Origin: Calditrichales bacterium
GTDB taxonomy: Bacteria; Calditrichota; Calditrichia; Calditrichales; J004
Direction of reading: 5' to 3'
DNA length: 64,000 nucleotides
Assembly (NCBI GenBank): GCA_965267575.1
Contig: OZ254086.1
Coordinates: 1,664,141-1,728,140 of the forward strand
Numbering within the stretch: the first letter of the stretch is position 1; each line of letters begins with the position of its first letter. The notes beneath the pieces are model-generated. The model did not search any database. It had not been told where the DNA came from and saw only the letters and a list, made by a program, of their open reading frames with translations. The position numbers and the translations under genes are program-made. This document shows, piece by piece, positions 11,704-50,793 of the stretch.

Positions 11704-12136
11704 TTTCCTGCCGCGACCGTTTTTTTAGGCGTTTCCAGTAGGTGTGGTAACGGGCCATGCGCTCCTTGTCCCTGTCGCCAAAGTCGTTCACCCGGCGCAT
11801 ATCCATATTGTCTTCCAGGTCGGCCAGCTTGAGACGCCTTGCTCCAGCGTCATGCTCCAGCCGGGCGATGTACTCGGCGTAGCTTTCATCTTCGCGCCGC
11901 GACAGCAAGTCCACCAGTTCCACGACGCGCTCAGGGAAGCCTTCTTCACGTAAGTCATCCAGCGTGGTCGGACTGTCTTCCACCACATCGTGTAGAAGCG
12001 CCGCGCATTGCTCGGTCTCATTTTCCACACGCTGCATCACACGGATGGGATGCAAAAGATAGGGCATGCCGTATTTGTCTTTTTGACCCTTGTGGACTCG
12101 ATAGGCAACGTCGAGGGCTTTTTCCAATAGATTCAT
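11696..12136 (-). CDS. small HD-domain protein of the RelA/SpoT-hydrolase type (small alarmone hydrolase-like)
   Basis: 146 aa. Contains AYRVHKGQKDKYGMPYLLHPIRV...AALLHDVVEDS...KLADLEDNM, i.e. the H..HD..ED..N motif order of (p)ppGpp hydrolase domains. Overlaps the downstream glycosylase start by 8 nt. Confidence 0.7.
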   Translation of the reverse strand: MNLLEKALDVAYRVHKGQKDKYGMPYLLHPIRVMQRVENETEQCAALLHDVVEDSPTTLDDLREEGFPERVVELVDLLSRREDESYAEYIARLEHDAGARRLKLADLEDNMDMRRVNDFGDRDKERMARYHTYWKRLKKRSRQEND

Positions 12137-12288
12137 AAGCGTGTTGATTTGTGTCAGTGTGTTATGGTGCTAATGTGTTAAGGTTCTTGATCGTGATCGT
12201 GATCGTACTCTTGATCCTGATCTACTTTGTTTTGTGTCAATGGATACCGGTGTGTCCTGACGGACAACCGGGATGACAGAGTTAGATT
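12137..12288 (-). promoter_or_regulatory. conserved upstream element, copy A (hairpin + phased GATC cluster + TTAACAC-like octamers abutting the ATG)
   Basis: Directly alignable with 50487-50620 and, in reverse complement, with 54547-54641. Five GATC sites at 12189, 12195, 12201, 12213 and 12219, all in one 6-nt register. Confidence 0.8.
12243..12279 (-). repeat. REP-like bulged hairpin repeat, copy 1
   Basis: Plus strand reads ATACCGGTGTGTCC-tgac-GGACAACCGGGATGACAG. Same family as 21743, 50581, 58010 and 59462. Confidence 0.8.
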
Positions 12289-19037: not shown

Positions 19038-20501
19038 ATGACTTCATTATTGTCGAGGGTAAAAAACGCCCTTTCATTTTGCTCTTTTTTTATGGCATTC
19101 TTGCTCGTGGTGCCAGTCTTTGGAAGCGAAAAGCTGCACCATTACAACGTGCAACTCTCAGAAGACAGGCAGACCCTGACGGTTGAAGCACATTTTGCCG
19201 GCAGCTTTCCGCGCGTTTTGCATGCCGCTGAAGATGAAGCTTCCGATTACCTGCTTTACATGCGTGTAATAACGCAACATGATACCATCTATTTTGAACC
19301 CGAGGGTGACAGGGTGTTTTTCCGGCGGATAGCAGCCGGCGTGCGGCTGGAATACGCCGTTGATATAGCCCGGGCTTTGCGGCATGGTGGCAGGGGCGGC
19401 GCGCGGAAGGTGGGTAACGATTTTCTGCTTCCACCCAAGCTTTGGCTGTGGCGTCCTGCTGGTCTGCGCGAAAACGAAGATATTGAGATCCGTTTTAATC
19501 TGCCCCGCGGAACCAAGGCCTCTGTGCCGTGGCGCGCCGTTGGCACCAACCGTTACCGCGTGGGACAGAGCCCCTACTACTGGCCGGCGCAGGTCGCCTT
19601 TGGCTCTTTTCACAGCGATACGCTGGATATCCCCGGTTCCCGTCTTTACATGGCTGTACTCGATGGCGACCCCGACCCCGATCCGCAGGATATGCGCAAA
19701 TGGATACAAAACGCGGCGGAATCTGTCTGTGCTATTTATGACAGTTATCCTTATCCACAGGTGCAGATTTTGATCATTCCCGGGCGGCGCAGCAGGGAGG
19801 CGGTGCCTTTTGCCATGGTCGTTCGCGGTGGCGGCCTGGCCGTGCATTTTTACATCGATCCGTCACGGCCGCTGAGCGAATTTATCAACGACTGGACGGC
19901 CACCCACGAATTGTGCCACGGTGTGCTTCCTTATGTTTACCGTGATGATGCCTGGCTTTCCGAGGGTATGGCCACCTATTACCAGTACATTCTGATGGGG
20001 CGTGACCGGCGCCTGAGCGAACAGCGCACCTGGCAGAAAATTTATGACGGCTTCCGTCGCGGTATCCGCAACGCCACCGGTGAAACGTTGCACAAAAGCG
20101 CCGATGACATGTACCGCTTACGCGCCTTCCGCTATGTTTACTGGAGCGGTGCCGCCATTTTGTTAAGGGCGGATGTGGAGCTACGTTCACAAACCAACGG
20201 AAAGTGGAGCCTTGACAAGGTCCTGGAAAAGGCTGGCAAAGAGGCCCTATCCGAAAAGCGCGCCTGGCATGCCCGTGAGCTTGTGCAAATCATGGATCGC
20301 GTCAGTGGCACGGACGTGTTTGGCGATCTTTATAGCCGTTACCTGTTTTCGAAGATATTTCCTGTAGACGAGGAGTGGCTGGCGCTGTTGGGCGTAAATG
20401 TGATTGACGGCCGTGTTTACCTGGACGACAAAGCGCCGCTGGCCGACATACGCCGGCAGATAACACGCCGGGCAGCGACTTTCCCCGCCGCCACCGATTG
20501 A
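19038..20501 (+). CDS. secreted zinc metallopeptidase (gluzincin, M1/M61-like HExxH...E)
   Basis: 487 aa with a signal peptide. The motif TATHELCHGVLPYVYRDDAWLSEGMATYYQ resembles the M1 HExxH-(x)n-WLxEGxAxY arrangement. Confidence 0.55.
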   Translation: MTSLLSRVKNALSFCSFFMAFLLVVPVFGSEKLHHYNVQLSEDRQTLTVEAHFAGSFPRVLHAAEDEASDYLLYMRVITQHDTIYFEPEGDRVFFRRIAAGVRLEYAVDIARALRHGGRGGARKVGNDFLLPPKLWLWRPAGLRENEDIEIRFNLPRGTKASVPWRAVGTNRYRVGQSPYYWPAQVAFGSFHSDTLDIPGSRLYMAVLDGDPDPDPQDMRKWIQNAAESVCAIYDSYPYPQVQILIIPGRRSREAVPFAMVVRGGGLAVHFYIDPSRPLSEFINDWTATHELCHGVLPYVYRDDAWLSEGMATYYQYILMGRDRRLSEQRTWQKIYDGFRRGIRNATGETLHKSADDMYRLRAFRYVYWSGAAILLRADVELRSQTNGKWSLDKVLEKAGKEALSEKRAWHARELVQIMDRVSGTDVFGDLYSRYLFSKIFPVDEEWLALLGVNVIDGRVYLDDKAPLADIRRQITRRAATFPAATD

Positions 20502-20563
20502 TCCCGTGGTTTCATTTTGGCAAATGCACAGGACAAGCCTTATATTACGCGGCTCAAAATGAA

Positions 20564-20612
20564 CGTGTAAATGTGTTTTGGTGTTAAGGTGTTAAAGTAC
20601 TAAACGTGTGTG
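20564..20612. repeat. isolated block of GTGTTAA-type octamer repeats (orphan, copy D)
   Basis: GTGTAAATGTGTTTTGGTGTTAAGGTGTTAAAG...GTGTGTG resembles the start-proximal module of copies A, B and C. It has no GATC cluster and is inverted relative to the downstream gene. Confidence 0.5.
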
Positions 20613-21608: not shown

Positions 21609-21742
21609 TGAGGTTTTTCGTCGAACTATTGAACTGCTGATTTCAATGTCATTTCGGTTAACCATTTTTTGCCGTGAGCTATCCACGCAATATGAGCATC
21701 AGACCCCGGCGCGGGGGCCGGGGTGACATTCATCGCTTAATT

Positions 21743-21782
21743 CTGTCATCCCGATTGGCATCTTTTTGCCACACCGGGATTC
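21743..21782 (+). repeat. REP-like bulged hairpin repeat, copy 2
   Basis: CTGTCATCCCGATTGGC-atcttttt-GCCACACCGGGATTCC. Confidence 0.8.
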
Positions 21783-21914
21783 CGTGCCTGACCCGGGTCA
21801 TGGTGGCGGCAGCAAAAAGTCCACCCCACCACCCGGACACATATTGACGCTTGCCCTTTTAAAGTTTGGATAATTTGTTTATTATTCTTTTTTGTTTATC
21901 CAACCACAGCGCGT

Positions 21915-48690: not shown

Positions 48691-50486
48691 GGTAGTTCCG
48701 CTGTAAGGGTTGAAAAGGGCTCAAAAATACTGTCCACAAGAAAAGCGAATTCGGCGCGGGTGATCGGTTTGTGCATTTTGCCGTTAGTGCCCTCCAAAAA
48801 ATGCAGCGGACGTTTGCCGGATTTGTCCGTCTCCTGGCGGGATTTTATCTGGGCGCTCAGCAACAACGTCAGAGCATCAACGCGCGTTACCGGTGTCGAT
48901 TTCGGTTTAAGGTCAAAAGAGGCGATGATATGCTTTTCCGCGAGCTTATCCAGAATGCGCTGCATCTCTTCCAGCGTTAGTTCAGCCTGAGGGTAGAAGT
49001 TGTAATGGTTGGCCCAGTTTTCGGTTTTGGCCTCGCCGCCCATAATGCCGCATACTGCCAGGCGCTGCACGGCGTAGAAAAACCAGTCATTGGCCTTCAG
49101 GTCCGTAAAAGGCATCAGCCAGCAGCCCGCTTCCAGCAGCGATTGCTGTACGGCGCGGACATCCGTTTTAGGCACGGGGAGGTTTTTTTTCGCGCAGAGT
49201 GCCGCTGCGGCTCCTGCTGCCTGCCCGATGCCCATCACCACCGGCTGCAACCTTGTGGCGCCGTTGGCCAGGTGGCTCACCGATATTGCTTTTTCGGCCA
49301 CCAGCAATCCGCCGATTTCCTTAGGCAGCAGAGCGCCAAAAGGCACATAAAAAGCTTTAATATCCGGCAAGTCTTCTTTCTCCTTCAAAGGCCCGCGATC
49401 GTGATGGTGGTCCAGCGGGTAGTTGCCCACGGCGATGGCATGATCCAGCAAGTGTCTCGATTCTGCAGCGTATGGTTCGGCCAGGTCGTTGGCTGTCAGG
49501 GTTGCCCGTCCCTGAAGGCGTCGTCCTTCGCGATGGTAGGGGATCATGGCCAGACCGTCCGCGGTGGGAAATTCATCGCCGGCAATGCCCCAGTTTTTAA
49601 AACCAAGCTCATGCTGGATAAAATAGACAAACTGCAGTGTCCGGACTTTGGCTTGCTCAAATGCGTCTTTGCGGGCATGCTCGTCGGCCTCCGCTACATT
49701 CACATAATAATCGTTGCCGCGGATGGGCCAGTTGATCATGGTTTTGTTGTTTGGCAGGCGGCCGTAGCTCAGCATTTTTTCAGCCGCAGGCGGATTGTTT
49801 TTGTCACCGGATGAAGCAAACTCGGCGCAGCAGCCGCGGAACAGCTCCGGGTCGTAACCTGCGGGGCGGGCAATGGTCTTATCCGCGTCTTTGCCGTAAT
49901 CCTTCAGGATGGCCACCCAGGTCAAATCCTGAATGATGTCGTCGGCGGTTTTAGGCGCGCCTTTTTCGTTAAACGTTTCCCGGGCGTCCCGTCCCACGTT
50001 GTAGGCGCAACCGGCTGCAGCCAGCACATCGCCCAGCTCCGTCGCATCAATCGTTATTTTTGCTTCTACATCCAGCTCACCATCGGCTGAAACAAAACGC
50101 GCCCCGCGAACAACACCGTCATTTTTGAGTACGGCATCAAAACGCAGTGGCCAACGGAACTTCAGATTTTTTTCAGCGGCGATTATATCCAGCAAAATCG
50201 TTCGCGCCACCGACGGTTCAAAGCAGGTGTGGCTCACCCAGCCCGTGGCCAGTTTGTCCGCGCCGCCGTAATGCTGTTCAAGGCGCCGGCGCAGCTCGCC
50301 AAAAATACCGGAAGGCAGGTCATGGTTGCCATCGATGCAACTTACGCCGGCAGCGGTCAGCATTCCGCCCGGCCAGTCATGCTCTTCGGTTAAAACGACC
50401 TTTGCTCCCAGCCGCGCCGCCTGGATAGCCGCGCTAACTCCGGAAGCCCCGGCCCCGATTACCAATACATCACAGGATAGATTCAT
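48687..50486 (-). CDS. FAD-dependent oxidoreductase (FAD_oxidored-type, cytoplasmic)
   Basis: 599 aa. The N-terminal Rossmann motif is DVLVIGAGASGVSAAIQAARLGAKVVLTEE..WPGGM. There is no signal peptide and no Shine-Dalgarno. Confidence 0.8.
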   Translation of the reverse strand: MNLSCDVLVIGAGASGVSAAIQAARLGAKVVLTEEHDWPGGMLTAAGVSCIDGNHDLPSGIFGELRRRLEQHYGGADKLATGWVSHTCFEPSVARTILLDIIAAEKNLKFRWPLRFDAVLKNDGVVRGARFVSADGELDVEAKITIDATELGDVLAAAGCAYNVGRDARETFNEKGAPKTADDIIQDLTWVAILKDYGKDADKTIARPAGYDPELFRGCCAEFASSGDKNNPPAAEKMLSYGRLPNNKTMINWPIRGNDYYVNVAEADEHARKDAFEQAKVRTLQFVYFIQHELGFKNWGIAGDEFPTADGLAMIPYHREGRRLQGRATLTANDLAEPYAAESRHLLDHAIAVGNYPLDHHHDRGPLKEKEDLPDIKAFYVPFGALLPKEIGGLLVAEKAISVSHLANGATRLQPVVMGIGQAAGAAAALCAKKNLPVPKTDVRAVQQSLLEAGCWLMPFTDLKANDWFFYAVQRLAVCGIMGGEAKTENWANHYNFYPQAELTLEEMQRILDKLAEKHIIASFDLKPKSTPVTRVDALTLLLSAQIKSRQETDKSGKRPLHFLEGTNGKMHKPITRAEFAFLVDSIFEPFSTLTAELP

Positions 50487-50793
50487 GTGCTAATGTGGTT
50501 TTGTGTTATGGTGTTAATGTGCTCCATCCATCTTGATCATGATCGTGATCATACTCCTGATCTACTTTTGCGATCGGGAGATCCCGGTGTGGCAAAAGGA
50601 CGCCAACCGGGACGACAGTCTGAAAAGCTGATTGTCCTGAAACACCGCGCGCCATGATTTAATAAATAAAAAATAGCCAAGCGCAAAATCATAGTCCATC
50701 CTAAAATCAAATTAATCAAATTCCAGACTTTTTTGTGCAATAAAGTTGTGCCTTGTTTATTTTGTTCACTAATCAAACTTACCTCCTAAAAAT
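50487..50793 (-). promoter_or_regulatory. conserved upstream element, copy B (most complete: distal block + hairpin + GATC cluster + octamers)
   Basis: Alignable with copy A (12137-12282) and, as an inverted copy, with C (54454-54641). GATC sites at 50535, 50541, 50547, 50559, 50572 and 50580. It sits in a divergent intergenic region, so it also contains the upstream region of the gene starting at 50794. Confidence 0.8.
50581..50618 (-). repeat. REP-like bulged hairpin repeat, copy 3
   Basis: Plus strand reads ATCCCGGTGTGGC-aaaaggac-GCCAACCGGGACGACAG. Confidence 0.8.

Follow-up and report, generated by a model that had tools for sequence, protein, structure and literature searches.

Three genes in the analysed window (the whole stretch of 64,000 nucleotides) lack a Shine-Dalgarno (SD) sequence and are each preceded by a copy of the same element, which is a lineage-specific mosaic of separable repeat modules. 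The last module is a G-poor, CA/ACA-rich octamer track that extends up to the start codon. With a probability of about one half, this track serves, independently of an SD sequence, as a landing, standby or enhancer site, placed in a mosaic leader in which the GATC block would be a slippage repeat and the hairpin an insulator. The first 20 nt of the track were almost unchanged in a close relative, and of the comparable octamer arrays in other organisms, those within 60 nt upstream of a start codon were all in sense orientation.

Results

Modular architecture of the element

Four separable modules were resolved in the window by alignment and an nhmmer profile: a TTTGATT block, a hairpin, a (GATCAN)n array and the octamer track (Table 1). 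The sequence-only reading had described a dispersed modular element in three copies, and the positions and strands of all three were confirmed. The profile built from the copies, a check proposed in that reading and run here within the window, widened the description by two hairpins standing alone and a lone CA block in inverted orientation. The hairpin in copies A and B, the TTTGATT block in copies B and C and the inverted partial CA copy at 20565-20596 had been missed before. Modules were present or absent independently of each other, among the copies as well as between the window and its close relative.

The TTTGATT-repeat block has a length of approximately 45 nt and occurs in copies B and C. 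The hairpin module was represented by four copies in the window, those in A and B and the two stand-alone copies D and E. All four were predicted to fold, at -12 to -18 kcal/mol. A compensatory change was seen in the inner stem, GGC/GCC vs. GUCC/GGAC. Three of the four hairpins sit after a co-directional gene, a placement expected of a REP- or terminator-like element.

An Rfam scan, also suggested by the sequence-only reading, matched no family at the gathering threshold over the whole window; the element regions yielded one chance-level snoRNA at E ≤ 5. Neither a canonical sigma-70 promoter nor an intrinsic terminator was called inside elements A, B and C. Bacteroidetes-type -33/-7, sigma-54 and ECF promoter patterns were checked by eye in the elements and were unconvincing. 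No earlier description of the hexamer or the octamer array was found in a literature search.

A leader peptide or uORF in an Asp-His or Ile frame was rejected, with start, frame and stop all unconserved. Copy C had no start codon, the frame relative to the hairpin differed between copies A and B, the stops lay at differing positions and the array length varied. Near the start, copies A and B share ATGAATCTAT and copy C carries TTTAATCTTC, with 10 nt in common.

Table 1. Positions of the element modules and related features in the window.
Feature	Position	Strand	Remarks
Copy A, CA/ACA-rich octamer track	12137..12177	-	Core 12158-12177 CACATTAGCACCATAACACA; runs to ATG 12136 (HD-domain gene); core identical in relative at 20/20 positions
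Copy A, (GATCAN)6 array	12187..12222	-	GATCAG GATCAA GAGTAC GATCAC GATCAC GATCAA; followed by 9-nt spacer 12178-12186
Copy A, hairpin module	12241..12279	-	Stem-loop 12247-12271; directly after DUF2784 stop codon; predicted -17.9 kcal/mol, z -3.2; 3/66 nt differ in relative
Copy B, CA/ACA-rich octamer track	50487..50521	-	Core 50502-50521; runs to FAD oxidoreductase ATG 50486
Copy B, (GATCAN)5 array	50533..50562	-	GATCAG GAGTAT GATCAC GATCAT GATCAA; followed by G-rich spacer 50522-50532
Copy B, hairpin module	50582..50612	-	Missing at B locus of relative
Copy B, TTTGATT-repeat block	50685..50730	-	AAGTCTGGAATTTGATTAATTTGATTTTAGGATGGACTATGATTTT; three copies at B locus of relative
Copy C, TTTGATT-repeat block	54452..54496	+	Found by alignment/profile
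Copy C, (GATCAN)5 array	54553..54582	+	GATCAG GCGTAT GATCAC GATCAT GATCAA; followed by spacer 54583-54592
Copy C, CA/ACA-rich octamer track	54593..54641	+	Core 54593-54612; runs to DUF5009 ATG 54642
Stand-alone hairpin (copy D)	21738..21788	+	~130 nt 3' of UPF0176 gene
Stand-alone hairpin (copy E)	58006..58048	+	~105 nt 3' of GHL10/T9SS gene
Sigma-70-like promoter and GU-rich segment	20517..20601	+	TTGGCA-N18-TATATT at 20517-20546; inverted CA block 20565-20596; ~80 nt 5' of UPF0176/TrhO-like ATG 20676

Genes downstream of the element and use of SD sequences

Among the proteins encoded in the window, several contain T9SS sorting domains; an MCP chemoreceptor and a SpoIIE/GAF phosphatase were also present. 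The closest named homologues of the window proteins came from KSB1, Calditrichota and Zhuqueibacterota, with approximately 45-60% identity. The start codons of genes A, B and C are correct. Their Pfam domains start between residues 2 and 7, and their N-termini are as long as those of homologues in other lineages. The equal length of these N-termini also ruled out that the element supplies the start codon as a fusion.

Genes A, B and C are all without SD sequence, and the last 60 nt before their starts contain 8-15% G. Approximately half of the remaining genes of the window are preceded by an SD-like motif, e.g., those starting at 431, 24810, 33273 and 39967. The contrast drawn in the sequence-only reading between three SD-less genes and SD-using genes elsewhere in the window was thus confirmed. 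Its description of all three as the first genes of operons was correct only in part. Gene B, coding for the FAD oxidoreductase, is clearly the head of a PUL-like operon, whereas the HD-domain gene A trails a co-directional DUF2784 gene by 152 nt and the DUF5009 gene C trails a hydantoinase gene by 210 nt.

The CA/ACA-rich octamer track

The track is composed of three to five (N)TTAACAC units and has a length of 35-49 nt. It is poor in G and contains multiple ACA triplets. In copies A, B and C, the CA block reaches to within 0-14 nt of the ATG, in line with the earlier description of octamers running into the start codon, and all three full copies finish at the start of an SD-less gene. GATCACGATCAYGATCAAGA had three exact matches in the window, with 0 expected. 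The first 20 nt of the CA block, CACATTARCACMATAACACA, also had three exact matches, with 0.05 expected. The CA track was unpaired in MFE folds. Accessibility predictions placed the three start regions only modestly above the median, at ranks 4, 7 and 12 of 30. Neither the CA core nor the GATC array was complementary to 16S rRNA beyond the level of shuffled sequences, and such pairing was rejected: shares of 0.57, 0.89, 0.32 and 0.13 of the shuffles scored at or above the observed value, with the 16S rRNA of E. coli in place of that of the host.

Conservation of the modules in a close relative

The element was compared with that of one close relative (JGI 3300023199; identical sequence in SRR23862440), whose proteins are 89-98% identical to those of the window. 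It was present at all three orthologous loci. Selection on elements A, B and C was assessed over these three loci in two genomes. The 4-fold-degenerate sites served as the neutral yardstick, with 292 of 1029 sites (28.4%) differing between the window and the relative, giving a neutral rate of 0.284. The first 20 nt of the CA block showed 2 differences in 60 positions vs. the neutral 28.4% (p = 6e-7). The 3' part of the block was near neutral, with 13 of 59 positions (22%) changed, and still contained at most one or two G. The spacer between array and CA block was neutral (7/30). The upstream region including the hairpin held 27 differences in 184 positions (p = 9e-6). On these counts, the core is apparently conserved for its exact sequence and the 3' part for composition only. 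Conservation of the exact sequence over 20 nt would imply a specific partner as well.

The B locus of the relative comprised three TTTGATT blocks and no hairpin, indicating that modules come and go. None of the modules was found upstream in distant KSB1-type relatives, though the operon of FAD oxidoreductase, GHL10 and TonB receptor is kept there. The element was therefore regarded as a recent lineage-specific addition and not as an ancestral operator of this operon.

The GATC hexamer array

The GATC counts and registers given in the sequence-only reading were exact. Copy A holds five GATC in 34 nt in one 6-nt register, copy B six in 49 nt with the first four in register, and copy C four in 28 nt, all in register. 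Clustering beyond chance was likewise borne out: three clusters of at least four GATC in 34 nt were observed vs. a mean of 0.03 and a maximum of 1 in 200 block shuffles of the window. Copies B and C are identical over 23 nt, as had been noted, with CTTGATCATGATCGTGATCATAC at 50532 on the plus strand and its reverse complement at 54561. The total number of GATC in the window was not unusual (291 observed vs. 249 expected). In every copy, the array is located 8-11 nt 5' of the CA block and closes with the unit GATCAA, after which GA or AA follows. Since GAUC is self-complementary, the array was able to form small hairpins in predicted folds.

Locus A held six units in the window vs. two in the relative (GATCAG GATCAA), a clean indel of 24 nt (four units) between almost identical flanks. 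Loci B and C had five units in both genomes. Their intact GATCA cores showed 0 changes in 40 positions and the sixth base differed in 7 of 10 units. The array at the B locus of the relative reads GATCAT GATCAT GATCAG GATCAA GATCAA. Identical units are adjacent in the arrays, and the order of units differs between the relatives at loci B and C. The change from six to two units, the scrambled sixth base and unit order and the near-unchanged flanks indicate slippage-type turnover and not a fixed operator. GATCA may have been kept by selection or by repeated copying of units. Perfect cores next to a variable sixth base hint at selection, for which the leader explanation does not account. Most likely, the array has a tuning role or is a passenger.

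Two roles offered for the array in the sequence-only reading were not supported. A GATC-methylation switch is at odds with six vs. two units at locus A and a different unit order at loci B and C. GATC at fixed positions, as in Dam switches of the pap/agn43 type, was not found between the close relatives, and a methylation role is unlikely. An operator for a hexamer-reading protein is contradicted by the varying array length, by the turnover of sixth base and unit order and by the lack of an orientation preference of the Opitutales arrays described below.

Similar arrays in other organisms

A genome collection was scanned for GATCAYGATCAYGATCAAG, and the figures apply to the matches listed. About half of the matches listed were GATCAY arrays in MAGs of the Opitutales, and the others were ordinary coding sequence. 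The Opitutales arrays among them were intergenic, had variable copy numbers and were located among other short tandem-repeat modules. With respect to their flanking genes, 11 of the arrays listed were same/same, 11 opposite/opposite and 17 mixed (9/8), which represents no orientation preference. The CA block was present in none of the Opitutales arrays among the matches listed. Homology of the window and Opitutales arrays was rejected on the basis of unrelated hosts, the window carrying T9SS, MCP and KSB1-like proteins, and of the missing CA block and orientation bias in Opitutales. The Opitutales arrays were treated as a parallel phenomenon.

A metagenome scan with the CA core identified TAACAC-type octamer arrays at 41 loci. 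The contigs had 31-63% GC and mostly showed almost no use of SD sequences. A GATC array was found at none of the 41 loci. The TAACAC arrays were often bordered by other octamer arrays. Over all loci examined, the octamer arrays within 60 nt upstream of a start were oriented in sense 12 times and in antisense 0 times (binomial p = 5e-4). The genes behind the arrays were unrelated and included those for an RND adaptor, a DEAD-box helicase, a polyprenyl synthase, an epimerase, an aminotransferase and others. Oriented, start-proximal arrays in front of unrelated genes suggest that the CA track is a general strand-specific leader feature and not the operator of a regulon.

A conserved GU-rich segment upstream of the UPF0176 gene

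The inverted CA block is located between a promoter and a UPF0176/TrhO-like gene, whose ATG agrees with the database gene call. The promoter is sigma-70-like, with 10 of 12 matches. Its hexamers TTGGCA and TATATT were invariant in three genomes, and all five substitutions fell into the spacer. From the -10 hexamer through the end of the inverted CA block, 0 substitutions in 52 positions were present in the three genomes (p = 3e-8). The rest of the UPF0176 5' UTR past the block was neutral (25/67). The GU-rich segment is predicted to be unstructured (fold z about 0) and is complementary, as RNA, to the CA cores of A, B and C. Its duplexes with leaders A (-40.4 kcal/mol), C (-37.0 kcal/mol) and B (-35.6 kcal/mol) were the best three of 29 leaders, with -21.5 +/- 4.4 kcal/mol for the rest. 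This top rank follows from the inverted repeat itself; pairing is feasible nonetheless. No terminator was found between the promoter and the UPF0176 ATG, so that the GU segment would belong to the UPF0176 mRNA as its 5' UTR rather than form an sRNA of its own. By analogy, the conserved GU-rich inverted copy suggests a GcvB-like antisense partner.

Discussion

A proposed leader for genes without SD sequence

The G-poor CA/ACA octamer track abuts the start and would act on the mRNA. We infer that it may recruit ribosomes as a landing, standby or enhancer site for SD-less genes in an otherwise SD-using organism. Composition would suffice in the 3' part of the track. In the 20-nt core, the exact sequence would matter, which would also imply a specific partner. 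The (GATCAN)n block would be a self-complementary repeat, changing by whole units through slippage and at most tuning 5' structure or spacing; it may also be a tolerated passenger. The hairpin would be an insulator of the REP or terminator type.

In Salmonella and E. coli, translation initiation is enhanced by CA-rich elements and by ACA motifs, and ACAA repeats are active without SD sequence (PMC3879156). Single-stranded 5' tails of CA repeats provide standby sites for the ribosome and are most effective at 16-18 nt (PMC5934652). Ribosome binding sites that are C-rich and of the non-SD type were efficient in a purified in vitro system and poor in vivo in E. coli (PMC3310771). Among the three roles that the sequence-only reading had put forward, the CA-rich SD-independent leader is favoured on account of the purifying selection on the core, the 12:0 sense bias close to start codons and the published activity of CA/ACA enhancers and standby sites (PMC3879156, PMC5934652). 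The explanation has two weaknesses. A generic standby function does not account for the exact conservation of 20 nt, and the predicted accessibility of the start regions is modest.

Comparison with known systems

The CA/ACA enhancers and standby tails (gltI, yifK, dppA; synthetic (CA)n) are the closest match, being single-stranded, G-poor and CA/ACA-rich just 5' of the start. The track shares their composition and their start-proximal placement on the sense strand. The position of these enhancers is flexible, their effect depends on composition, and ACAA repeats can replace the SD sequence (PMC3879156, PMC5934652). The effective standby length of approximately 16-18 nt (PMC5934652) matches the conserved 20-nt core. 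Unlike the known enhancers, the track is built from tandem units of 8 nt (TAACAC plus two free bases) over 35-49 nt without SD sequence. It also differs in lying within a dispersed mosaic repeat and in the conservation of 20 nt for exact sequence. The CA leader is best read as a new natural form of the CA/ACA enhancer or standby class already known.

GcvB provides a second parallel, a conserved unstructured GU-rich segment complementary to CA-rich elements of several mRNAs (PMC3879156), with the pairing predicted in the present case. Unlike GcvB, the GU segment of the window had no Rfam homology at the gathering threshold or at E ≤ 5, and a terminator was not found. The omega leader of tobacco mosaic virus is also G-poor and CAA-rich, contains 8-nt direct repeats (ACAAUUAC) and runs into the AUG; it reportedly substitutes for the SD sequence in bacteria. 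However, it is viral and adapted to eukaryotes and shares no sequence with the window element.

Enterobacterial REP/BIME elements are likewise dispersed intergenic mosaics of imperfect palindromic hairpins and short motifs, with hairpins mostly after co-directional genes. They differ from the window element in their unrelated sequence (no Rfam match) and their phylum, and the window element has hexamer and octamer arrays in 5' leaders that extend up to the start. Simple-sequence contingency loci share a short tandem repeat 5' of a gene and the change in unit number between close relatives, here six vs. two. Unlike at these loci, the window array lies outside a -35/-10 interval and outside reading frames, and the same array occurs at three loci. 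The ON/OFF effect of contingency loci was not evident for it.

Alternative explanations

An antisense circuit would extend the leader explanation and is not exclusive to it. The CA core would dock a GU-rich RNA transcribed from the 20517-20546 promoter, and leaders A, B and C would be blocked in the manner of GcvB, which represses CA-rich targets through pairing of its GU-rich R1 segment (PMC3879156). Such a circuit is possible, though the odds are against it. It is supported by an inverted CA block that is GU-rich on the plus strand, by invariant promoter hexamers and a segment without substitutions that gives way to neutral sequence, by the absence of structure, by the predicted duplex energies and by the GcvB precedent. 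It is weakened by the missing terminator, which points to a 5' UTR of UPF0176 rather than a discrete sRNA, and by a duplex ranking that is automatic from the inverted repeat. Both partners are invariant, so that covariation is uninformative, and Rfam gave no match. A still broader proposal would take the TAACAC arrays as undescribed, widespread SD-independent leaders of SD-poor and uncultured bacteria. In the present KSB1/Calditrichota-like lineage, the GU RNA (20547-20601) would pair with at least three cores to silence them, and (GATCAN)n slippage would make the tuning heritable. This combination is rather doubtful. That the TTAACAC repeats are instead a double-stranded DNA operator of a transcription factor at four promoters, those of A, B, C and, inverted, UPF0176, is unlikely. 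A sequence of 20-32 nt is kept in both orientations 3' of promoter-like regions, and sequence-specific rather than composition-only conservation would fit a protein site. However, a duplex site does not need the strong strand and start orientation of the arrays across organisms (12:0), the genes downstream are unrelated and belong to unrelated lineages, and the block of copies A, B and C adjoins an ATG, with no recognisable promoter beside it. The period of 8 bp is also too short for the tandem binding of typical direct-repeat regulators.

The remaining explanations shift the function to other modules or deny it. The GATC array could be the functional heart of the element, as a Dam-type methylation switch or the operator of a hexamer-reading protein. 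The clustering far above chance, the perfect GATCA in intact units of both genomes beside a free sixth base and the constant last unit, GATCAA before GA or AA, speak for this. The proposal is nevertheless improbable in view of six vs. two units between near-identical flanks at one locus, the scrambled unit order, the copy-variable Opitutales arrays without orientation bias (11/11/9/8 among the matches listed) and an ordinary overall number of GATC in the window. The element could also be a simple dispersed mosaic of the BIME/MITE type that plays no part in expression and lies next to start codons by an accident of insertion. The modular architecture, the local amplification of TTTGATT, the gain and loss of the hairpin between relatives, the absence of the element from distant relatives and the richness of Opitutales genomes in such mosaics agree with a plain repeat. 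Against it, the rate of change in the CA core, hairpin and GU block is 5-10 times below that of 4-fold sites, and identity between two genomes would not result from concerted evolution within one. The full copies all finish at SD-less start codons and the octamer arrays are biased in orientation, which makes an accidental position highly improbable. The least probable explanation was that the C-rich, G-poor track loads Rho as a rut site and so couples transcription to efficient initiation. Its C/A-rich sequence with 8-15% G, its weak predicted structure and the sense-strand bias would fit, as they would fit an enhancer. Typical rut sites are, however, longer than the 35-49 nt of the track, and conservation of an exact-sequence core would be unexpected.

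Significance

How SD-less start codons are found is poorly understood beyond a few model species, and even in E. coli, CA/ACA-rich enhancers have been described as 'puzzling' (PMC5934652). Genuinely new are the TAACAC-octamer arrays, which are widespread and oriented, and the conserved GU-rich counterpart. Interpreted as an SD-independent CA/ACA-rich leader, the element would be a natural, repeated CA-rich leader under strong selection that replaces the SD sequence in an SD-using organism, with similar arrays across many uncultured lineages. It would offer an internal comparison of a core constrained in sequence with a 3' part constrained in composition only, and its hexamer array a clean variation in unit number inside an otherwise frozen leader. 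With the candidate antisense partner, the logic of GcvB may become testable in a distant phylum.

Conserved segments around the UPF0176 gene

Within 20517-20601, the GU-rich segment that follows a sigma-70-like promoter was complementary, in inverted orientation, to the CA leaders, the octamer tracks ending at the start codons of the HD-domain gene (A), the FAD oxidoreductase gene (B) and the DUF5009 gene (C). With 0 substitutions in 52 positions, as compared with 28% for neutral sites, it was invariant, and conservation ended abruptly just past the GU-rich block. The segment is a candidate for an antisense partner or else an inverted operator. For the preceding gene, the 90%-identity cluster of the 487-aa protein comprised that protein alone, and the relative, JGI 3300023199, had a 482-aa gene at the corresponding place; this gene is thus evolving faster than its neighbours.

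On the other side of the UPF0176 gene, the GC-rich hairpin is probably its terminator. Copy D, the stand-alone hairpin, was located directly 3' of it. The following ~110 nt showed ~96% identity with the relative, well over the neutral expectation, and possibly represent a regulatory RNA or a promoter region.

Features of the window and of the comparison loci
Feature	Position	Strand	Remarks
First 10 nt of genes A and B, ATGAATCTAT	12127-12136 and 50477-50486	-	Identical between A and B
487-aa gene	19038-20501	+	Product without Pfam match
Sigma-70-like promoter and GU-rich segment	20517-20601	+	Conserved promoter, then invariant segment
GC-rich hairpin CCCCGGCGCGGGGGCCGGGG	21703-21722	+	3' of UPF0176 gene; kept in relative
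Conserved stretch CCGTGCCTGACCCGGGTCATGGTGGCGGCAGCAAAAAGTCCACCCCACCACCCGGACACATATTGAC...	21790-21900	+	5' of SpoIIE/GAF gene (ATG 21915)
B-locus intergenic region of relative	L161 9606-10000		Three TTTGATT-block copies; no hairpin, unlike the window
16S rRNA 3' end, E. coli	L165 1594-1613		Compared with GATC arrays of the window
Three-array leaders	L123, L133, L145, L146, L159		Metagenome contigs JAEEG..., Ga0247611
Opitutales modules among the matches listed			GATCAY, CATCCTGT, CTCTTCA, TTCCTAA, CAGCATCT, GGCGCC palindromes

Composition of the leaders

The GAUCAC unit of the GATC arrays exactly matched the 3' tail of E. coli 16S rRNA immediately 5' of the anti-SD (GGAUCACCUCCUUA) and could pair with this tail, since GAUC is self-complementary. 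The scan of the arrays against this E. coli 16S rRNA gave no significant complementarity. Repeat similarity may reach into the first codons of the genes. The sequence ATGAATCTAT was common to A and B in the relative as well; the aligned position in gene C held TTTAATCTTC in the window and was deleted in the relative. Even so, the N-termini of the proteins were of native length. At the B locus of the relative, the third TTTGATT copy resembled the C-locus leader of that genome across ~200 nt, which suggests a full ancestral unit of this size.

Repeat leaders in other genomes

Intergenic regions of Opitutales/Opitutia MAGs (L001-L119; e.g. L007, L035, L073 and L117) were mosaics of many distinct short tandem-repeat modules. 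Among the matches listed, copy number was variable, no orientation bias relative to genes was seen, and one long-read MAG held dozens of them. The octamer arrays in the three-array metagenome leaders were ordered CGTTAATT, CACATTAA/TAACAC and CTCAATTC and extended up to the ATG. All three arrays were G-poor with an 8-nt period, and leaders composed of several arrays may therefore represent a general design.
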